A DNA stretch of 64,000 bases. Source: a virus (taxonomy: Duplodnaviria; Caudoviricetes). The notes under the pieces were generated by a model. That model did no database searches, was not told the DNA's origin, and worked only from the letters and a program-made list of their open reading frames with translations. Location: IMG/VR virus record IMGVR_UViG_3300028886_001681, positions 32,001-96,000 of that record, one strand, 5' to 3'. The position numbers and the translations under genes are program-made. Below are positions 28,654-48,865 of the stretch, in pieces; the stretch's first letter is position 1, and each line of letters starts with the position of its first letter.

Positions 28654-29366
28654 TTTAAGTCGTCCTCCTCTCTCGATTTTTTATAATCCTCTATTATTTT
28701 ATCCTTCAATCCTTCCAAACCCTTGGGCATTCGTCCGCAACACTTGATTTCCTTGCAGTAACCGATGTCCTCGCACTTGGGGACGAAGTAGTTGTCGCAA
28801 ATCCACTTCCATTCCTCGGAGTAGGCGGAAAGTTTATCCTTGATTTCCTTGGACAATTCCCTAATCTCATTGTAAGCCCTAGAGCAAAGCCTTTCGTTCA
28901 TGAAGTGAATCAATGCTCGCAAGTTTATCTTCCACACGATTTTCGTGTCCATTCCCAACGGAAGGATGTTGGCTATGTCCTCTTTCGGCATTCCCAATTC
29001 CGCCAATTTTCCGTATGAGTCGGAAATCTCGTCCATCACCGTCTCGTAAATTTCTAGTTGCTTGGAGGATACTCCTTTGGGAGTATAGTAGTTGAAGTTC
29101 TCATAGTCAACATACCTCGTGGACGATTGTAAATAAGTGGTTCCCACTATATGACGACCCAATTCTCTGATACATCTTGCGGATTTACAATCTATAATAA
29201 ATACCACATCCACATATTCCATTATTCGCCCGTGTCCGCTATTGATGCATGACTTGGCTCGTTTTATATTTTTATCAACATCGTCAATATTAGAATTCCA
29301 ACAAACCCCAGCGATTTTTCCAATATAATTCAATGGATTTTTTTGGCAAGACTCAATCAATATCAT
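28650..29366 (-). CDS. thyX: flavin-dependent thymidylate synthase
   Basis: SGH...EY, RH-x7-S-x-R-Y (RHIVGTTYLQSSTRY), NLR.L..F...R...RA..EIR. Confidence 0.92.
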   Translation of the reverse strand: MILIESCQKNPLNYIGKIAGVCWNSNIDDVDKNIKRAKSCINSGHGRIMEYVDVVFIIDCKSARCIRELGRHIVGTTYLQSSTRYVDYENFNYYTPKGVSSKQLEIYETVMDEISDSYGKLAELGMPKEDIANILPLGMDTKIVWKINLRALIHFMNERLCSRAYNEIRELSKEIKDKLSAYSEEWKWICDNYFVPKCEDIGYCKEIKCCGRMPKGLEGLKDKIIEDYKKSREEDDLK

Positions 29367-30586
29367 TTATCTCTCCTTTCAGATACATAATCATTCAAAT
29401 CATAAGCGTTTTGTTCAAAATGTTCAAACGCATCAAATAAATCATCTTTCTTTAAAATTTTGACATTATTGACAATCATACAGTTTTGTTTTTCAATCAA
29501 CAATTCATTTTTATTATAAGGATTGATTAATTCACCTTTTTCGTTAAAAAAATGGTCGCCTTTTATTTCAACCAATTCTCCATTTATCAAAAAATCAGGT
29601 TCGTATGAGTGTACTTTTCCATCTATTTCATAAGTTATGTTGGTTTTGGGATGAAAAATAAAATCAATTTTATTATCTTTCAGATACATATAATAAATTA
29701 ATTCCCACGAACTATCAAATTTATTATTATCATATTCGAATTTATATTGATTCCATTGCTTTCCGTATTTTTCGATACATGTTTTTCTTATTTTATCTCT
29801 AACCCATTCTAATTTATTAATATTATCTACTCCATATTTCGCTAATGAAGATTCCGCTTTATGTTGTTTTACAACATCGCTTGAATTTGGACTTTCGACT
29901 CCGTATTTCAATAGGCTAGTTTGTTTGGTTTTTTCTTTATAATCTTTCGTTCCTAAATATTCTTCACTTCCATATTTAATTAGATTTGTTTGTTTTTTCT
30001 TTTTTTTAAATTCCTCAACTTGGCTCACATTTTCAATATTGTTGCCATAGCGACTTTTTAATGTATTTTTAGTGTGCTCTTTCATAATTTCAGATTGAGT
30101 TGTATATTCAACTCCGTATTTTTTAAGATTTGTTTCTTTGGTTTTTTTCATTTTTAATTCATTGAAATTTTCCAAAGAACCATATTTTTCAATAATGGTT
30201 TTATTTCTTTTTTCGGCGGAAATTTTATTAAAATTTTCCAAAGAGCCAAAACGCTCGATTATTTTATTTTTGCGATTTTTTATATTTTTTTCAGTATTCA
30301 TTGTACACGAAACCCCATATTTTGTTAAATTTGTTTCTTTTGCTTTATCGGCATTTACATAATTTTCATTTCCATATTTTAATAATTTAGTATGTTTTAC
30401 TGAACAAACCATACATCGAGAAATATTATTTCTATTTTTTATATTTTTTGCAAATTTTGAAAATGGTTTTCCACAAACGCAACAAAGACCTTCAAACATT
30501 ATGTTTGATGATTTTTTAAACAAAATATCATCGTTTACAATATCATTTATATTCGATGAAGTTATTGTGATAATATTATATTCCAT
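29363..30586 (-). CDS. putative homing endonuclease (KETNL.KYG repeats, C-terminal PD-(D/E)xK-like nuclease)
   Basis: Many T...KYGV repeats; DSSWE...YEPDF...VEIKG; very AT-rich. Confidence 0.75.
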   Translation of the reverse strand: MEYNIITITSSNINDIVNDDILFKKSSNIMFEGLCCVCGKPFSKFAKNIKNRNNISRCMVCSVKHTKLLKYGNENYVNADKAKETNLTKYGVSCTMNTEKNIKNRKNKIIERFGSLENFNKISAEKRNKTIIEKYGSLENFNELKMKKTKETNLKKYGVEYTTQSEIMKEHTKNTLKSRYGNNIENVSQVEEFKKKKKQTNLIKYGSEEYLGTKDYKEKTKQTSLLKYGVESPNSSDVVKQHKAESSLAKYGVDNINKLEWVRDKIRKTCIEKYGKQWNQYKFEYDNNKFDSSWELIYYMYLKDNKIDFIFHPKTNITYEIDGKVHSYEPDFLINGELVEIKGDHFFNEKGELINPYNKNELLIEKQNCMIVNNVKILKKDDLFDAFEHFEQNAYDLNDYVSERRDK

Positions 30587-31517: not shown

Positions 31518-31691
31518 TCAAGCGTTCGGATTGTTTCTCATGCAATCGCTGATTCTTTTGACTTCCACAATCTTGTTGTTGGGAAACTTCTTCCTAGCCT
31601 CTAGTTCCGCGCAATATCCGTCGGCAGTCACACAGACATATTCGGAAGGCTTTCCGCTTTCGTCAACCATTTCGACTTTATACTTATACAT
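31518..31691 (-). CDS. small hypothetical protein
   Basis: MYKYKVEM start with GGAGG RBS inside the TopIB 3' end. Confidence 0.55.
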   Translation of the reverse strand: MYKYKVEMVDESGKPSEYVCVTADGYCAELEARKKFPNNKIVEVKRISDCMRNNPNA

Positions 31692-32406
31692 TGGGGTATT
31701 TCCTCCAATAATCGGAAGGCACATTGTTAGCCCAAACATTGAATCTTTCGACCAAAGACTTGGAATAAATCGTCGTAGGCTCGTGGTTCGTATCCTTGCA
31801 CAATGAATATGCCACTTTCGGATTTGAGTAGTTTGTCATCGCGGTATTCAAAGCGATGTTTCTGTTTTCCGAATTGGATTTGGCCAATTTCTTAATGTCC
31901 TTGAATTTCTGTTCCGCCCCCTTCAACTTGTCGTTCAATTCTTTTCTTTGAGCGGATATTTCGCTCAATTTCTCCTTGAGAAGTTTTCCGTCAAGGCAAG
32001 ATTTGTAGTCGGATTCTAGTCCGTCAAGTTTCGCCAATTTTTTCTCTATTGAATTTTTGGACTTGTCGAACGAAGCCTTCGCTTTCTTGGTTTTGTTTTT
32101 CGTGGATTCGTCAATTTTTTCGTTTTGCTCTTTGGTTAGCGTTTTCTTATGGTTGAGTTTAATCGTGACCACTTTAGCGCAATCCATGTATTGATTCTTG
32201 AACTGTTTGTCGGTCAGATTGCTCCAATCTCTCTTTTGAATTTCTTCCGCAAGCAAAGATGTGCCGAAATAAGTTCTGAATGTTTTTGCTGTTGCGAACT
32301 CATATTTATTTTTTATTGTTTCCAATAACGAATCGTCAATTTCAAATTTATCGACCGATAGCAAGTTCTTCAAGCGTTTTGGTAATTTTGTCATAATTAT
32401 AAGCAT
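31684..32406 (-). CDS. DNA topoisomerase IB, C-terminal part (linker and catalytic Tyr)
   Basis: AKTFRTY, KLNH, coiled-coil linker, ALNTAMTNYSNPK; AAGGAGGG RBS 5 nt before ATG at 32406. Confidence 0.88.
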   Translation of the reverse strand: MLIIMTKLPKRLKNLLSVDKFEIDDSLLETIKNKYEFATAKTFRTYFGTSLLAEEIQKRDWSNLTDKQFKNQYMDCAKVVTIKLNHKKTLTKEQNEKIDESTKNKTKKAKASFDKSKNSIEKKLAKLDGLESDYKSCLDGKLLKEKLSEISAQRKELNDKLKGAEQKFKDIKKLAKSNSENRNIALNTAMTNYSNPKVAYSLCKDTNHEPTTIYSKSLVERFNVWANNVPSDYWRKYPNV

Positions 32407-33292
32407 ATTTGCCCTCCTTAATATTATTATATACTGTTTGTGTGTATTCGTCAAAATAATTTTTATAAACTTTTATAAAATCATTCCAAGCAATATCAAT
32501 GTTAAATTTATTATATAAAAATTGTTGTAATGCTTTATTTGATTTTATTTTTAATTTTACTTTTTCATTTTTAGCGATGTTTTTTTCACCCTTCATGGAA
32601 TCACTTCGTATTTTTTTACTTTCTTCAGTGATTCCATTTTTGCGTTTTTCAGAATAAATTTTTTTATCTCCATCGGATAAAGAATCCCAAAACATTTTAT
32701 TTTTTTCAGATTTATTTTTCTTTTCTTTTTCATTCCAATGTTTCCCTTTCATTGGATTGATATAATTTTTTTGTTTTGCTAATTTTTTATGAGTTTTGCT
32801 TGATTTTTCTTTCAATTCATTTGTCCACATTTCTTTAACTTTTTGTTTATGAAAATCTTTAACTTTTTCAAAGCCATCTCTTTGATGTTGTCTTAATGTA
32901 TCGAATTCTTCTTTTGATAAAGATTTATACCATGATTTTGTAGATTGAGATTTTTTTAATTTTTGTTCATCAGTTATATATAAATTATAATTAGATTCCC
33001 CACCTTCGGTCATGTTGTATCCAAAATTTAAATCATTGGAATGAAAAAGTTTAATTAATCTTTTTTCCCAATAATTTAAGTCATAAGTTTCAATTAATAT
33101 TTCAAAAGAAAAATTTTTAACGCCATATTTTCTTATTGCTTTATGAATATAACAATCATCTTTTGAATTTATATGAGAAATCCATCTATTGTGAATATCA
33201 ATTGATTGACCGATATAAACTTTATGATTTATGAGATTTTCAATTTTATAAATTCCACTAATATGATTATTATATATTTTATGTCTACTCAT
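32348..33292 (-). CDS. GIY-YIG homing endonuclease inserted in the TopIB gene
   Basis: SGIYKI.N.IN.KVYIGQS..I..RW..H, GYN...GG; AT-rich; overlaps both TopIB parts. Confidence 0.92.
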   Translation of the reverse strand: MSRHKIYNNHISGIYKIENLINHKVYIGQSIDIHNRWISHINSKDDCYIHKAIRKYGVKNFSFEILIETYDLNYWEKRLIKLFHSNDLNFGYNMTEGGESNYNLYITDEQKLKKSQSTKSWYKSLSKEEFDTLRQHQRDGFEKVKDFHKQKVKEMWTNELKEKSSKTHKKLAKQKNYINPMKGKHWNEKEKKNKSEKNKMFWDSLSDGDKKIYSEKRKNGITEESKKIRSDSMKGEKNIAKNEKVKLKIKSNKALQQFLYNKFNIDIAWNDFIKVYKNYFDEYTQTVYNNIKEGKYAYNYDKITKTLEELAIGR

Positions 33293-34469
33293 TTAAATAA
33301 TCCATTACATTATATTTAACAATCAAACCTATCGCTAATTTAATGTCATTTTCATTTTTAGATAACAATAGTTCGTCAATTTTTATTTTTAAGCATACAT
33401 TATTTAAAAATTCGTTCACATCGTTAGACGATATTTTGTCGAACGCTCTGTCTTTTGGGCTTTTGTCTTTCAAGCATTTTTTCAACGAATCAAAAGCGTC
33501 CTCATCAACTTTCATCGTGTTGTCCATTACCATTGAGTCTTTACCCAAGAAATGCAAACGGACTTTTTTGCTTTCCAACAAAATGATGTTCTCAACTTTA
33601 AGGGTGGACGCTCCGACGACCCCATTGTTCCGTTTGTCCTCGTTGCCCGCTCGTATACCAAATTTAGAGATTATGTAGGCACAACAACCAATTTGCCGTT
33701 TCTTGGCGTTGTCGGACAAGTAAGCGTCTTTTATCGCCTTGGTGACCTTTCTGATGTTTTGTTGCAGAAGCCTAGCATTCTCGAATTTTTCCTCGTCGGA
33801 ATCCGCCTTGAATAAAGACTTGTTGGAAAACCAAATCGCCTTTTGAATCGTGACGCTAGGATTTCCAATCAACCGCTCGGTGTAGGTGGCAATTGAAGAG
33901 GTGTCCTTGAACGACACATCCTTCCATTTGTGAGTTCCGTAATCGCACGGAAACGGATAAGACGAATTGATTGACACATCTTCAGGCATTACATCTTCCA
34001 CAACAAATCCGCTCCATTCGCAAGCACCGCGCCCTATGAATATTCGGCTAGACTCGATTAATGAGTTTCCTATCTCAACCTTCTCTCCGTCAACCAAAGC
34101 GTAGCCGTAGGTTTCCTTCCATTTTTTGTTTTCTTCCGCTATTTCCTTTCTATGTTCTTTATTGTAAAGTTTCTTTTCTTCCGCGTATTTTTCTTTAATC
34201 GCTTTCATTCTTGACAGAACCGTTTCGAAGTCGGACGGAAATTTCAATTCCTTCTGTTCCTTCGTCAGTTCCGTTTTTAATGACTTATAAAAATTCTTTT
34301 GGTAGACATTTTCGCTTTTGTATTTGTCCGCCAAAGTAGACCACATGAAGAGCCATTTCACCGCTCGATATGACAATCTCATTTTATTCTCGTTGGAATA
34401 ATATTCGTCAATGTAGGGTAATTCCTTGGGGAATTTCACGCACCCTTCAATTAATTTGAGTTCTTTCAT
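33285..34469 (-). CDS. DNA topoisomerase IB, N-terminal/core part
   Basis: YGYALVDG...IGN...F.GRG...PEDVSIN; KFE.AR; GIRAGNE; GASTL; FLGKDS. Confidence 0.9.
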   Translation of the reverse strand: MKELKLIEGCVKFPKELPYIDEYYSNENKMRLSYRAVKWLFMWSTLADKYKSENVYQKNFYKSLKTELTKEQKELKFPSDFETVLSRMKAIKEKYAEEKKLYNKEHRKEIAEENKKWKETYGYALVDGEKVEIGNSLIESSRIFIGRGACEWSGFVVEDVMPEDVSINSSYPFPCDYGTHKWKDVSFKDTSSIATYTERLIGNPSVTIQKAIWFSNKSLFKADSDEEKFENARLLQQNIRKVTKAIKDAYLSDNAKKRQIGCCAYIISKFGIRAGNEDKRNNGVVGASTLKVENIILLESKKVRLHFLGKDSMVMDNTMKVDEDAFDSLKKCLKDKSPKDRAFDKISSNDVNEFLNNVCLKIKIDELLLSKNENDIKLAIGLIVKYNVMDYLNE

Positions 34470-42833: not shown

Positions 42834-43052
42834 TTAAATCTGATACCAAGTCTTTGAAGTTTCTTCGTAGAACCAAACTTCACCTGTGTCGACGCAGAAA
42901 GCGGTGGAACCTGTGATGGTGTTCTGCATTTCATTAGGAAGAAGAGTGACATCGGAACTCAAGCCCATGAAGAGTTTGTGGTTGCCCTTTATCTCAGTTA
43001 AAACAAAACTACCGTAATGCTCTGTCGTGTCTGGTATATTCGTGTTTGCCAT
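42834..43052 (-). CDS. small structural-cassette protein
   Basis: GLSSD..LP...GS.AF.VDTG...Y...W; first gene after TAACTATTT at 43081-43089. Confidence 0.65.
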   Translation of the reverse strand: MANTNIPDTTEHYGSFVLTEIKGNHKLFMGLSSDVTLLPNEMQNTITGSTAFCVDTGEVWFYEETSKTWYQI

Positions 43053-43239
43053 ATCATTACTCCATTCATTGTGATTTTTTAAATAGTTATTCCAACCTTT
43101 CGTAAGTTGGTTTCGTAAAATTTTTCATGAAATTGTTGAAAAGAATTTCGATGTGCGCTAATATGCGAAAAACACTAAATGTTGGGTTGAAAACGATAAC
43201 TATTGTTAGTCCGACACTACATACAGAGAGGTAAAAATC

Positions 43240-44046
43240 ATGAAGGTAAGAAAAAGAGACGGAAGATTTGCGAATTTCAACGAATCAAAAATTGCGAACG
43301 CCATTAAATTGGCGTCTGAAAATTCAAAAAGCGACAACAAAATAACAGACGAACAAATAAAAAACACCCTTACTTTTGTAAAGTTATCTATTGAAGGTAA
43401 AGATGAGGTTAGTGTCGATGACATTCATGACTTGGTTGAAAAATCTTTGAAAAAAGAAAACAAGGATGTCGCCAAGTCATACATCGAATACAGAAAAAAC
43501 CGAGAACTTGACAGATTTAGAAATCTTGAAATTACAAAAAGAATTTTTGAAAAATTGAACGCGACGAATGTCATGAATCAAAACGCAAACCTCGACGAAT
43601 TTTCGTTCGGAGGAAGAAAGGGCGAAGCGGATTCCGCATTGTTGAAGGAGTTAGCCTTGAACTATTTGATTTCTCCCAAATTCGCCAAAAACCACAATAA
43701 CAATAGAATTTATATACACGACCTAGACTCTTATTTTGTCGGAATGCATAACTGTTTATCGCTTCCCATTGACGATTTGTTAAGAAACGGAATGAAAACT
43801 AGACAAGTTTTCATTAGACCCGCCAACAGTTTGTCGACCGCAATGCAACTTGTCGCAGTGGCGATTCAATTACAATCTTTGCAACAGTTCGGAGGTGTGG
43901 CGGTAACTCACATCGATTGGACTATGGTTCCTTACATTCGAAAATCGTTTTTCAAGCATTATAATGATGGCCTTAAATACGCGGAAGGCAAATCGGATAA
44001 AGAAATTGAAAAAATCGACAATGGGATTTTAGAAAAAAGTAAGTGA
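43240..44046 (+). CDS. nrdD: anaerobic ribonucleotide reductase, N-terminal part (NrdD-a)
   Basis: ATP-cone (VRKRDG), NQNANLDE, IYIHDLD, HNCL, QFGGV. Confidence 0.93.
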   Translation: MKVRKRDGRFANFNESKIANAIKLASENSKSDNKITDEQIKNTLTFVKLSIEGKDEVSVDDIHDLVEKSLKKENKDVAKSYIEYRKNRELDRFRNLEITKRIFEKLNATNVMNQNANLDEFSFGGRKGEADSALLKELALNYLISPKFAKNHNNNRIYIHDLDSYFVGMHNCLSLPIDDLLRNGMKTRQVFIRPANSLSTAMQLVAVAIQLQSLQQFGGVAVTHIDWTMVPYIRKSFFKHYNDGLKYAEGKSDKEIEKIDNGILEKSK

Positions 44047-44074
44047 TTTCCCAATCGGATTAACTATTTGTATT

Positions 44075-45409
44075 ATGAAAGAAACATTGATAGAAATATT
44101 TAAGAAAAAAGGCATTCTCAATAAAAATAACGGACGAAAATTCTGTTATAAAAATTATTGGGACGACGAATGCGAATCGTTGTGGGGAAAATATTCTTCT
44201 AATTATAGAAGTAATGATGAAGCGTGGTATTGCTTGTCTAAAAATGTAGAACCTCCGAAATGTCCATTGTGTGATAAGTTATGTAGATTTGTGGGCGGAA
44301 AGCGAGGTTATAAAATAACTTGCGAAACTTGTGACCCAAATAAAGTTCCGTCTAAATTAAAACATTTTTCCAAGACTATTTCTAAAAGAACAGAAGAAGA
44401 AAAAAGGAAAATCTTTGAAAAAAGAAAACAAACTAATTTAGAATTATACGGAGATGAAAATTTTACATTGTATGGCTCTAAATCTTTCAAAGAAAACATG
44501 TTGAATAAATATGGCAATGAAAATTACTCTAATCACGAAAAAGCAAAAGAAACTAGTATCGAACGATATGGTGTGGATTGCAATTTTAAAAGGGAAGGAT
44601 TTCAACAATATTCTGCGAATAAAAAACGAGAACTATACGGCAACGCCTCTAATTATGAAAAAACCATGAAAACCAACATGAAGAGGTATGGTGTTCCCCA
44701 CATAGGACAATGTAGAGAAATAATAAATAAAAATAATCTCGAAAAACAAGAAAAATATGATAAATTCGAAATTGAAAACGATTGCACATCGAGGAGTAAA
44801 TTAAAAAAATTATACGGTGTAGGATGGTGGTCTCTCGGTATAGAATATCTTGAATACATGGGGCATTATTTTGTACCTAATGAATTTTTAAAAGATATAA
44901 TAGAATATTCTAGCGAAGGTACGCACACCAACAGTTATATTTCTAAACGAGAAGTTGAGCTTAGAAATTACATTAAAGAAATTTATGATGGTGAAATTCT
45001 CAACAATGTGACCAATGTCGTAAAAAATAACAATCATAGATATTTTGAATTAGATTTGTATTTGCCTCGATTAAAAATTGCATTTGATTTTGACGGAATG
45101 TATTGGCATTCCATAAAATTTAAAGATAAATATTATCATCAAAGAAAAAGTGTATGTTGTTTGGAGCAAGGGGTTAGATTGGCTCATATACAAGAAGATG
45201 AATGGGTGAATAATCGTGAGGTTTTGTGCGATAAAATAAGACAATTAATTTTTGAAAACAAAACATTTAATGATGGTTGTTTCCCACCTTCGTTGAACGA
45301 TTATAATTTTTCTGAACCTAGAAAGATTATGATTGATAAATTTGGTAAAAAAACACTTGACGAAAGCCAGTGTAATTTAATATATTATGATACAGGAGTT
45401 ATTTTATGA
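44075..45409 (+). CDS. homing endonuclease (Hef/Vsr-like) splitting nrdD
   Basis: Zn finger, T...YG repeats, ELD.Y.P.LKIAF.FDG.YWHS...EDEW; TAACTATTT 5 nt before ATG. Confidence 0.82.
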   Translation: MKETLIEIFKKKGILNKNNGRKFCYKNYWDDECESLWGKYSSNYRSNDEAWYCLSKNVEPPKCPLCDKLCRFVGGKRGYKITCETCDPNKVPSKLKHFSKTISKRTEEEKRKIFEKRKQTNLELYGDENFTLYGSKSFKENMLNKYGNENYSNHEKAKETSIERYGVDCNFKREGFQQYSANKKRELYGNASNYEKTMKTNMKRYGVPHIGQCREIINKNNLEKQEKYDKFEIENDCTSRSKLKKLYGVGWWSLGIEYLEYMGHYFVPNEFLKDIIEYSSEGTHTNSYISKREVELRNYIKEIYDGEILNNVTNVVKNNNHRYFELDLYLPRLKIAFDFDGMYWHSIKFKDKYYHQRKSVCCLEQGVRLAHIQEDEWVNNREVLCDKIRQLIFENKTFNDGCFPPSLNDYNFSEPRKIMIDKFGKKTLDESQCNLIYYDTGVIL

Positions 45410-45558
45410 GAGATGTGATTGATGTGTCCATTGATGACGAAAAGTACAAAAAGCATAAAAAAGCGTATCAATACGCCATGGATATGCTACAAAAAGAAGT
45501 TCACCAATCGATAGAAGGATTGTTGCACAATTTAAATTCATTGCAAAGCAGGTCGGGT
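45406..45558 (+). CDS. nrdD: NrdD-b exon 1 (not in ORF track)
   Basis: CAGGAG RBS; ATGA overlap with the endonuclease stop; MRDVID...AYQYAMDM...HNLNSLQSRSG. Confidence 0.88.
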
Positions 45559-45819
45559 AGACTTTAGATTGCCCCATTCATCAGTAATGATGAATTGATA
45601 ATTCGGTAAAATCGGTGAAGACTAAATCATTAAGATATGTTGATACCGAGATAAGCATTCGAATTGCGAAAGGTCGAATGACATTGTAGAGCATAGAAGG
45701 TGAATAAATATAATCCTTCCACGAGTACCGAACATCCAAATATTTGGATGAAAATGTATGCCGAACTTATGAGAAATCATAAGAAGTATGGATAAAAAGC
45801 CATACGATAACAAATATTG
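45559..45819 (+). mobile_element. group I intron (261 nt, no ORF)
   Basis: Removal restores QSRSG|NQLPF; 5' exon ends in U, intron ends in G; P1 GGGU/GCCC; P7-like GCAUA/UAUGC. Confidence 0.88.
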
Positions 45820-47664
45820 AATCAATTGCCGTTTTCGTCCATAAATTACGGAACTTGCACATTGAAAGAAGGTCGTTTACTAACCAAAGAAATTTTGGAA
45901 TGCACAATCGATGGTGTTGGAAATCACGCGACTTCCATTTTCCCATGCCAGATTTTTCAATTGATGGACGGTGTAAATGTGAAAGAAAGCGACCCTAATT
46001 ATGATTTATTCAGATTAGCAATCGAATGTACATCAAAACGCTTATATCCTAATTATGTAAACTGTGATTGGAGCAACGACCAAGGATATAATAAAGATGA
46101 CCCTAGAACTTATCCTAGTACAATGGGTGCGGTTCGTGGAGACGAAATTGTTTCTATTAAAATCAACGATGTTGAATTTAATGATATTTCGATTAAAAAA
46201 GCAATAGAAATGATTAATGCATATACTTCTAATGTCGAATGGATTAACAATGAATCTGATAAAATTGGATATACAAAACATAAACGAGTAAAAGATTGTC
46301 AGATTAAGTGTCAATCAAAATGGGTTAGAATTCTCAACATCGAATTCAACGACAAATCATCCCCCTTAAAATTATACGAAGTCACTTTTGATAAAAACGA
46401 AACCGAGCAAACTCTCCATATCACGGAAGACCATCCTTTACACACTAGCAGAGGAAGAGTCGAGGCTAGGGATTTGAAGGTCGGAGATGTGATTTATGAC
46501 TCCATTAGCGGTTACGGTTACAAAATCGTTTCCGTAAAAGAAACTAACGAAAAATGCGACACTTACGACTTCACTACAGAAACAGACATGTTTGATTTGA
46601 GCGGAATCGTCTCTCATAACTGTAGGACTTATAGCAGTAGCGACATAAACGCGGAGTCTGCGGAATTGTCGCATATTAAGGACGGACGAGGAAACATAAC
46701 ACCTGCGACTATAGTTTTGCCAACAATAGCCATGGAATCAAAAAAGAAAATGAAAGACGATACTGATGAAAAGGTTTTGATTGAACTTTTCATGAAAAAT
46801 CTCGAAGACGCGATAATCGACTGTAAAGACGAATTGATTGAAAGATTCAATTACATTTGCTCGCAAAATCCAAAATCCGCTTCCTTCATGTATGAAAACG
46901 GAACATTCTACGGATATAAAGAAAGCGAGGGAATTCGTTCAGCGTTGAAACACGGCAGTTTGGCGGTGGGACAAATAGGCTTGGCGGAAACTTTGCAAAT
47001 TTTAATTGGAACAGACCAATGCACGAAAAAAGGAATGGAGTTGGCAAAGAGAATTGAGGAATTATTCAAGCGAAAGTGTTCTGAGTTTAAGAACGAATAT
47101 AAATTGAATTTTGGAGTTTATTACACACCTGCGGAAGGATTATCAAAGACTTCATTCGATAAATTTGTGAAAAAATACGGTCTTATTGAAAATGTCACTG
47201 CATATAAAGATGAAAACGGAAAATTACAACCTAGAGGATATTTCACGAATTCGATTCATGTTCCTGTTTGGAAGGAAATTTCTCCGTTTGAAAAAATAGA
47301 CATAGAATCCCAATTAACGAATTATTCTTCGGCAGGTTGCATTACTTATGTTGAAATCGGAGACAACGCTTCCAACAACTTGAAAGCCCTCGAAGAACTC
47401 GTATTGTACGCCAAGTCGAAAGATGTTCCATATTTCGCATTGAATCTTCCGTTGTCGCATTGCAAAAAATGCGGTTGCGACGAAAACATTGGTTTTGAGG
47501 AAAGTTGTCCTAAATGTGGAGCGGATAAAGATGAAATTGAACATCTCGCTCGCGTGACAGGTTATCTCTCCACGGACTACAAGCATTTTAATTTAGGAAA
47601 GCAACACGAAGTCAAAGACCGATATGTTCATGTGAATAAATTGTCGTCATGGAAACAAAAATGA
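45820..47664 (+). CDS. nrdD: NrdD-b exon 2 (contains intein)
   Basis: PFSSINYG, IFP.QIF, STMG|CRT, GRGN, TPAE, YFTNS, CxxC, RVTGYL glycyl-radical motif. Confidence 0.93.
   Translation, partial: NQLPFSSINYGTCTLKEGRLLTKEILECTIDGVGNHATSIFPCQIFQLMDGVNVKESDPNYDLFRLAIECTSKRLYPNYVNCDWSNDQGYNKDDPRTYPSTMGAVRGDEIVSIKINDVEFNDISIKKAIEMINAYTSNVEWINNESDKIGYTKHKRVKDCQIKCQSKWVRILNIEFNDKSSPLKLYEVTFDKNETEQTLHITEDHPLHTSRGRVEARDLKVGDVIYDSISGYGYKIVSVKETNEKCDTYDFTTETDMFDLSGIVSHNCRTYSSSDINAESAELSHIKDGRGNITPATIVLPTIAMESKKKMKDDTDEKVLIELFMKNLEDAIIDCKDELIERFNYICSQNPKSASFMYENGTFYGYKESEGIRSALKHGSLAVGQIGLAETLQILIGTDQCTKKGMELAKRIEELFKRKCSEFKNEYKLNFGVYYTPAEGLSKTSFDKFVKKYGLIENVTAYKDENGKLQPRGYFTNSIHVPVWKEISPFEKIDIESQLTNYSSAGCITYVEIGDNASNNLKALEELVLYAKSKDVPYFALNLPLSHCKKCGCDENIGFEESCPKCGADKDEIEHLARVTGYLSTDYKHFNLGKQHEVKDRYVHVNKLSSWKQK
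46129..46620 (+). mobile_element. mini-intein (164 aa, Ala1) at the NrdD catalytic Cys
   Basis: Interrupts STMG|CRT; block B TEDH, block F TYD, terminal SHN, +1 Cys. Confidence 0.88.
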
Positions 47665-48164
47665 GATACGCGAATATCATAGAAAACGACATAGTTGACT
47701 CCATAAGTGGAATCAATGTGTCGTTTTGGTGTCAAGGTTGCAATTTCCATTGTCCTCATTGTCATAATCCGCAAACATGGAATTTGTGTGGCGGTCAAGA
47801 ACTCCCATCAAATTACAAAGAAATCGTTTTGGAATTGCTTCATAAAAACGGAATCAATCGAGGACTGTCTATTTTAGGCGGAGAACCTTTGATTGAGCAA
47901 AATCGTCAACTTGTTTCTGATTTGGTGAATTATGTCAAAGATAAATCTCCTACCACAATCATATATCTGTGGAGCGGATACACTTTGGAAGAGTTGAGAA
48001 AAATGAACGATGCTAGCGTGAACTTCATTCTGTCAACAATCGATTACCTAATCGACGGTCGCTACGAGGACGGCAAGAAGGACTTGTCGCTAAAGTTGAG
48101 AGGAAGTTCCAACCAAAATGTCTATCGACGAGTGAACGGCAAATTGAAGAAAATCGAAATTTAA
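47649..48164 (+). CDS. nrdG: anaerobic RNR activating enzyme (radical SAM)
   Basis: C-x3-C-x2-C (CNFHCPHC), GGEP, IDG.Y, RGSSNQ. Confidence 0.93.
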   Translation: METKMRYANIIENDIVDSISGINVSFWCQGCNFHCPHCHNPQTWNLCGGQELPSNYKEIVLELLHKNGINRGLSILGGEPLIEQNRQLVSDLVNYVKDKSPTTIIYLWSGYTLEELRKMNDASVNFILSTIDYLIDGRYEDGKKDLSLKLRGSSNQNVYRRVNGKLKKIEI

Positions 48165-48167
48165 ATG

Positions 48168-48197
48168 AAAAAAACGCTCGGAAATTCGAGCGTTTTT
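48168..48197. terminator. bidirectional terminator
   Basis: AAAAACGCTCG/CGAGCGTTTTT between convergent genes. Confidence 0.8.
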
Positions 48198-48205
48198 ATA
48201 TTCCT

Positions 48206-48865
48206 TTATTTTCTTGAACAAATTTCATCAATATAAACGATTTTGTTCCAATCTTCCATAGACAAGCCTTTCATCTGTATCTTGCGGTTTTGGAAAAACT
48301 TGATTTGCCAACCGCTAAACTTGGTGTCCACCGTGGCTAGGTCAATCCATGAACCGTATCGAATTTGATACTGAAGATATGTTCGAGGGTAGAAATAGGT
48401 TTCGGTGTCGTTGGGATATTTGTCCGCGTAGTCTTGAGCGACATCCATAAGATTATGACCAATTGAGCCGTCGCGGATGAATTCGTTCGTTTTCAAATAC
48501 CAAAGCAAGTCGAAAAACAACATGGAATCGAACGAACGAGAATAATCATGGAATTCACCAATCTTTGATTCTACAGAAAGTTCGCCAAACAAATAATGGA
48601 ACTTATCTTTCAGTTTTGCATCATCAGCACCGTCTCCAATTTTATCCTTAATCATAGAATATAACTGTTTATAATCCTTTACATCTCGGAAATAAACTTT
48701 AAATCCTACAGAATCGCAAATAAAACATCTGTCTCGGAATCCTACATAAATTCCAAATTCTTCTGAAAGTTTACTAGCAATCATCTTGCCATACAAATCT
48801 TCAACGTCATATTGATATTCATATTCTTTAGCGAGTTCTGCAAGCAAATCATAATCAATAATCAT
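48206..48865 (-). CDS. hypothetical protein (putative late)
   Basis: AGGAG RBS; TAACTATAT at 48895-48903. Confidence 0.7.
   Translation of the reverse strand: MIIDYDLLAELAKEYEYQYDVEDLYGKMIASKLSEEFGIYVGFRDRCFICDSVGFKVYFRDVKDYKQLYSMIKDKIGDGADDAKLKDKFHYLFGELSVESKIGEFHDYSRSFDSMLFFDLLWYLKTNEFIRDGSIGHNLMDVAQDYADKYPNDTETYFYPRTYLQYQIRYGSWIDLATVDTKFSGWQIKFFQNRKIQMKGLSMEDWNKIVYIDEICSRK

Follow-up and report, generated by a model that had tools for sequence, protein, structure and literature searches.

A mobile GIY-YIG cassette divides a predicted phage topoisomerase IB gene and supplies each half with a new end

Introduction

When a homing endonuclease gene comes to lie between the active-site codons of an enzyme gene, can the two resulting pieces still yield one working enzyme? 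The question is posed by a topoisomerase IB (TopIB) gene in a stretch of viral DNA of 64,000 nucleotides (nt), hereafter the window (bases 32001-96000 of the 160-kb IMG/VR virus record IMGVR_UViG_3300028886_001681, the completeness of which is estimated at 77%). Positions 31684-34469 of the window are tiled by three minus-strand open reading frames (ORFs), TopIB-N, a GIY-YIG endonuclease and TopIB-C, placed exactly as in an earlier note that a model had made from the sequence alone and that proposed a heterodimeric enzyme reassembled by element-derived tags. Following up that note computationally, we find that a mobile cassette of about 1.1 kb divides the gene and brings with it an extension for each half: a C-terminal tail for the N-part and an N-terminal head for the C-part. 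A split, two-chain TopIB reassembled via these cassette-borne tags is the best explanation of the locus and, in our judgement, a likely one.

Results

The TopIB gene is divided between its catalytic residues

Comparison with Pfam assigns to the N-part the Topoisom_I_N domain and positions 2-143 of the 228-position Topoisom_I profile, and to the C-part Topoisom_I positions 140-225 together with Topo_C_assoc; across the two ORFs the TopIB profile is complete, with nothing lost. As judged by alignment to human TOP1 chains, the N-part holds the RAGNE and GKDS motifs (equivalents of R488 and K532) and the C-part holds FRTY, NH and NY (equivalents of R590, H632 and Y723), which agrees with the earlier note's assignment of the first two catalytic residues to one ORF and the other three to the other. 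The catalytic pentad Arg-Lys-Arg-His-Tyr is all present and divided 2+3 within core subdomain III, and by homology the locus encodes a long (eukaryote/archaeal-type) TopIB in two pieces.

Alignment with intact relatives, a check that the earlier note had proposed, maps the insertion site: homology stops at Cys359 of the N-part (codon 33395-33393) and restarts at Glu36 (32301) to Lys41 (32286) of the C-part. In the family alignment this site is a variable-length loop, with the conserved VNxFL helix before it and the TAK-FRT motif after it. The note had also called the split point new, and the alignments support a division, between the K532 and R590 equivalents, that differs from that of kinetoplastids, since in Leishmania the Arg-Lys-Arg region lies entirely in the large subunit and the small subunit has only the Tyr. 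The closest element-free relative of the window, an ENA metagenome scaffold (L005) about 99% identical outside the cassette, sets the outer limits of the insert. The parts of the locus are the following.

33285-34469, minus strand: TopIB-N, whole ORF, 394 amino acids (aa)
33393-34469, minus strand: TopIB N-part core, residues 1-359, with the DNA-binding fragment and the first part of the catalytic core (Pfam; human TOP1 alignment)
33288-33392, minus strand: C-terminal tail of the N-part, residues 360-394, 35 codons, cassette-encoded
32348-33292, minus strand: putative free-standing GIY-YIG homing endonuclease gene, 314 aa (Pfam; PHROG)
32412-32419, minus strand: Shine-Dalgarno sequence AAGGAGGG of the C-part, within the endonuclease coding sequence, 6 bases ahead of the ATG at 32406
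31684-32406, minus strand: TopIB-C, whole ORF from the ATG at 32406, 240 aa
32287-32406, minus strand: N-terminal head of the C-part, residues 1-40, made up of 35 unique residues and five replaced TopIB codons (EFATA)
31684-32286, minus strand: TopIB C-part core (Pfam; human TOP1 alignment)
32287-33404, minus strand: entire mobile cassette, 1118 nt, in place of 36 nt coding GSICKDIPHLSN (blastn against L005)

The frames interlock, with the stop codon of the N-part (33285-33287) overlapping the endonuclease start and the final 19 codons of the endonuclease overlapping the opening codons of the C-part. The GC content is 0.20-0.25 in the insert versus 0.40-0.48 in the flanks.

The cassette is mobile and carries its own nuclease

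Against the 1118-for-36-nt exchange, the TopIB exons, about 1640 nt in all, show just 12 substitutions between the window and L005 (blastn). The N-part differs from the unsplit L005 allele by six substitutions and a 25-nt deletion in L005, and the C-part core by six synonymous and no non-synonymous changes. A second pair, from a lineage about 78% identical in protein, has the same boundaries: L004 (split) carries 1125 nt where L003 (intact, 568 aa, on a 218-kb contig) has 37 nt. The cassette opens with four replacement codons (NNVC) and closes with five (EFATA), and the tail, the nuclease and the head lie between them. The three-ORF layout and the site are common to the window and eight further contigs (L004 and L110-L116, from several ENA and Logan samples); at all nine split loci each frame is open over the whole reach of the contig, and the window's own three proteins are each recorded on two contigs.

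Three cassette types are known, those of the window, of L004 and of the L110-like loci. Between the window and L004 the cassettes are 83-96% identical and the exons 60-78%. Within the L110-like type, the cassettes of L110, L111, L113 and L115 differ by 0-3 substitutions in alleles with an exon dS (synonymous divergence) of 0.18-0.37, and the identical tracts reach about 45-65 nt into each exon. As read from these sequences, near-identical cassettes in diverged alleles, together with the co-conversion tracts, indicate recent homing. Because the cassette spread recently, the low exon dN/dS (ratio of non-synonymous to synonymous divergence; 0.03-0.1) mostly predates the insertions.

The middle ORF contains a GIY-YIG domain (Pfam, E 2.3e-7) and matches PHROG homing-endonuclease families (phrog_314, E 1.6e-19), and its dN/dS against the L004 copy is 0.19. 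The insert is best described as an intron-less, free-standing GIY-YIG element, a description that the analysis supports. Nuclease scans of viral and metagenome contigs returned 99 loci, at most 59% identical over the catalytic domain, and none of these 99 carries TopIB.

The earlier note had placed a ribosome-binding site for the C-part inside the 3' end of the endonuclease, ahead of the ATG at 32406. It is there: AAGGAGGG at 32419-32412 has AAGGAAGG as its equivalent in L004, and both the Shine-Dalgarno sequence and the ATG are conserved. The note's other expression signal, a AACTATTG motif in the tail of the N-part (33366-33373), fared worse. The window has five copies versus 2.5 expected, a count reached by 12 of 100 shuffles and so no more than chance; the site reads AATTATTG in one of the three cassette types (L004), and the preceding G breaks the (T/C)AACTAT motif seen elsewhere in this genome. 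We reject it as a promoter.

The tail and the head evolve as protein

Tail and head are kept at all nine split loci, in frame with the two TopIB halves, and the intact alleles have neither. The earlier note had credited the element with a tail of ~34 aa and a head of ~35 aa; we count 35 and 35 unique codons, which move with the nuclease into diverged alleles. A phmmer search against 193 family members, together with the family hidden Markov model, found no similarity of either to TopIB, apart from the L004 tail itself, and we reject duplicated TopIB segments as the source of the tags.

Between the window and L004 the tail shows five synonymous and three non-synonymous changes (dN/dS 0.11) and the head 13 and seven (dN/dS 0.08). 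When the variable sites of the tail and the non-overlapping part of the head are sorted by codon position over the three cassette types, the counts are 4, 4 and 13 (binomial P = 0.007). By this pattern of substitution, tail and head evolve like translated sequence under constraint, each in frame with its TopIB half.

We also ran the two-chain structure prediction that the note had suggested. With the N-part folded alone, its last native helix runs on into the tail, which adds two more helices (predicted local distance difference test, pLDDT, about 60-83). The N- and C-parts folded together yield an interaction prediction score from aligned errors (ipSAE) of 0.66, versus 0.01 for the best of three controls; the mark applied to this score is reached by 58 of 80 solved complexes and by 2 of 110 mismatched pairs, which are rough counts only, with own alignments used. 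The runs share at least 79% of contacts, with a partner pLDDT of at least 80, and all these scores express model confidence rather than measurement. Tail and head are predicted to touch, residues 378, 381, 382 and 385 of the N-part pairing with 28-32 of the C-part, 363 with 31, and 359 with 35. While the core-core interface of the model may merely recall solved single-chain TopIB structures, the tail-head contacts are without counterpart among solved structures. On this model, the extra protein ends probably clip the two halves together.

Two further observations concern the tags. A 10-nt direct repeat, AAATTGACGA, occurs in the tail (33382-33373) and in the head (32342-32333) in the same codon phase, and a deletion between the copies would join the halves in frame; the L110-type cassette does not preserve it perfectly, and this AT-rich sequence contains many repeats of 12-13 nt. 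We rejected it as a meaningful repeat and treat it as chance or a relic. A search with the head (C-part residues 1-60) as query returned no further split copies; close C-parts probably cluster under longer representatives.

A two-chain enzyme and its rivals

We propose that the 1.1-kb cassette inserted by homing just ahead of the TAK-FRT codons of a long eukaryote-type TopIB gene, at a place that encodes a variable surface loop, and brought with it the NNVC codons, an in-frame 35-codon tail, an out-of-frame GIY-YIG gene with an embedded ribosome-binding site and ATG, a 35-codon head and the EFATA codons. The replacement codons presumably destroy the nuclease target, which would make the carrier genome immune. 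The gene would then be translated as two chains, an N-chain of 394 aa with the equivalents of R488 and K532 and a C-chain of 240 aa with those of R590, H632 and Y723, which would associate non-covalently to rebuild a single active site, clasped by the helical tail and head as these pack together. The insertion would thereby be nearly neutral for the phage, with neither RNA nor protein splicing. The anatomy of the cassette, its boundaries, its mobility and the coding-type constraint on the tags are direct observations of this analysis; target immunity, assembly of the chains and relaxation activity we infer from them. That the tail-head pair is the cassette's own adaptation, a portable helical clasp unrelated to its target and needed to reassemble a core cut through the active site, is a more tentative idea, towards which we lean less than towards reassembly as such.

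Several observations weigh against this proposal. The intact exon ORFs and the low exon dN/dS mostly reflect pre-insertion history and not function when split. Only three cassette types are available, which keeps the number of substitutions in the tags low, and codons 1-19 of the head overlap the nuclease frame, which confounds the constraint seen there. With the C-part folded alone, the head is of low confidence (pLDDT below 50), with two short helices. Finally, the 25-nt deletion in L005 (around 1050-1086) frameshifts its TopIB into ORFs of 136 and 411 aa; if real and not an assembly error, it means that TopIB may be dispensable.

This last point feeds the one rival that deserves some weight, namely that the cassette inactivated TopIB and that the two ORFs are young remnants, tolerated as the enzyme is dispensable. 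Near-identical cassettes in diverged alleles would then mark insertions so recent that decay is not yet visible, and the L005 deletion, in an unsplit gene, suggests that the gene can be lost. However, the tail and the head are conserved over three cassette types with mostly synonymous change, which is hard to explain had they never been useful; the Shine-Dalgarno sequence and ATG of the C-part are conserved as well, all nine split loci keep their frames open, and an intact TopIB allele of 567 aa exists in the window's lineage. We consider inactivation unlikely.

Splicing, of RNA or of protein, would offer another way back to a single chain. In a cryptic group I intron with an endonuclease ORF, the Cys359|Glu36 junction would leave a loop of family-typical length, and the scarcity of free space is not decisive alone, since the 3' end of the T4 I-TevI ORF overlaps the Rfam match of the td intron. 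Two E-value scans of the locus with Rfam, over 4 kb and 1.3 kb, nevertheless found no intron family at E up to 10, while the same scan of T4 136-146 kb, chosen as a control because the window gave no internal positive control, detected both ORF-bearing introns (td, with the I-TevI ORF, at E 9e-8; nrdB at E 2e-6); a scan of the whole window at the gathering threshold gave no match. Moreover, the nuclease ORF leaves just about 100 nt and 45 nt uncovered, and because these tag stretches evolve as codons in frame with the TopIB halves, an intron core is disfavoured, as it is by the C-part having its own conserved Shine-Dalgarno sequence and ATG. The earlier note's description of the insert as fully coding and intron-less is upheld, and we regard the intron as very improbable. 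Least credible of all is a descent of the tail and head from a split intein, whether trans-splicing or merely docking the halves. A Cys does precede the tail, but this Cys359 is a host residue that aligns with the family's own position; the head does not end in a His-Asn with a Cys, Ser or Thr after it; the two tags together make up about 70 aa, for which helices and not beta structure are predicted; and neither half matches a Hint or intein family in Pfam at E up to 0.1. The two-chain TopIB reassembled through its tags remains the explanation that we favour.

Genomic context and other divided genes

The window's genes are of phage type (thyX, nrdD/nrdG, an ATP-dependent ligase, an Ig-domain structural protein), with Shine-Dalgarno sites upstream of genes. 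Among 50,697 phage records, megablast and tblastn found no match in cultured phages to the locus or the TopIB protein, and PHROGs hold no family matching either TopIB half.

A distant phage TopIB (L008, 893-3399) has its split at a second site, another variable loop (Pfam position 84|89), which separates the R488 equivalent from that of K532. It is divided by a different GIY-YIG gene, and any extensions are no longer than about 5 aa. L007 (2-1082) has the same C-part start as L008, with the GIY-YIG gene divergently oriented, and L009 is grouped with these two as a distant phage TopIB gene split at the second site. The tag-less GIY-YIG split in L008 shows that TopIB is repeatedly found in pieces. 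L010 (735-1655) has a 306-aa TopIB N-fragment, after which come a 47-aa ORF and a gene for a lytic transglycosylase, and the next 1.5 kb contain no C-part; the fragment may be a remnant or have its partner elsewhere. An apparent split in L006 was rejected, being a scaffold gap of Ns.

Two other genes of the window are associated with DUF7487 ORFs. At 29133-30582 (minus strand) lies a second AT-rich cassette with a 407-aa ORF (29363-30586) that matches DUF7487 and PHROG homing-endonuclease families. This ORF and a diverged first ~234 nt of thyX together replace 236 nt of L005, and the 407-aa ORF is missing from L003, L004 and L005; from this comparison, the nuclease beside thyX seems to have brought a substitute thyX 5' end. 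Furthermore, nrdD is in pieces at 43240-48164 (plus strand): a 268-aa ORF (ATP-cone and NRDD positions 2-136), a 444-aa DUF7487 ORF and a 615-aa ORF (NRDD 258-562; residues 196-253 weakly resemble Hint), after which comes nrdG. The Rfam E-value scan that detects the T4 introns found no group I intron in this region (43000-48300).

Discussion

The architecture described here is already known from MobA and Aeh1; what is new is the target, the split point and the GIY-YIG nuclease. In the MobA element of T4-like phages, which resides in topoisomerase II genes 39/60, a nuclease ORF in another frame lies between a C-terminal and an N-terminal extension, the element has inserted repeatedly at one site, and such tails have been proposed as a general strategy (Manning and Atkins, bioRxiv 10.1101/2022.08.31.505936). 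Like MobA, the TopIB cassette is about 1.1 kb long, places an out-of-frame nuclease between a C-terminal extension of the upstream half and an N-terminal extension of the downstream half, swaps a short target stretch for a homologous version, splits its target inside the catalytic domain and has inserted repeatedly at one site, with close element-free relatives (96-99% identical in the case of MobA). Unlike MobA, it has a GIY-YIG rather than an HNH nuclease, a type IB rather than a type IIA topoisomerase as target, extensions of about 35 rather than about 44 aa, and no translational bypass cassette. Judged by its nuclease, the TopIB cassette does not belong to the Mob lineage but is an analogue of it.

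As in the nrdA-a/mobE/nrdA-b genes of Aeromonas phage Aeh1, a free-standing nuclease divides active-site residues over two chains and its ORF overlaps the downstream half. The enzyme and the nuclease family are different, and while the insertion-derived tails of Aeh1 NrdA have been tested biochemically and are essential for activity (Crona et al. 2011, PMC3045599), the TopIB tags are known from sequence and model; unlike in Aeh1, many copies show the tags moving with the element. The bi-subunit enzyme of kinetoplastids is likewise a long TopIB of two separately encoded chains that share one active site, as is predicted for the chains here. In Leishmania, the large subunit LdTopIL keeps Arg-Lys-Arg(-His) and the small subunit LdTopIS only the Tyr (PMC2063514, PDB 2b9s), and the genes lie on different chromosomes without a mobile element, whereas here two residues of the pentad lie on one predicted chain and three on the other, with the cut falling inside core subdomain III. 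Finally, the locus resembles I-TevI in the T4 td intron, in that a GIY-YIG homing endonuclease sits in a phage gene of nucleotide or DNA metabolism within an AT-rich insert of about 1 kb; td has an Rfam-detectable ribozyme core and the TopIB insert has none, its non-nuclease parts being predicted to be translated as protein ends.

After MobA and Aeh1 mobE, this locus is a third, independent example of a homing-endonuclease cassette that brings protein extensions to the gene that it divides, with both nuclease family and target new. It offers topoisomerase research a natural, predicted two-chain long TopIB with the active-site residues split 2+3 in the core, and it further supports the view that large uncultured phages of gut or wastewater commonly have long TopIB genes. 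If the tail and head do act as a clasp, they would be a ready-made tag pair for splitting proteins and, with MobA and Aeh1 MobE, would establish a general way, the third after introns and inteins, in which homing endonucleases neutralise insertion into important genes.

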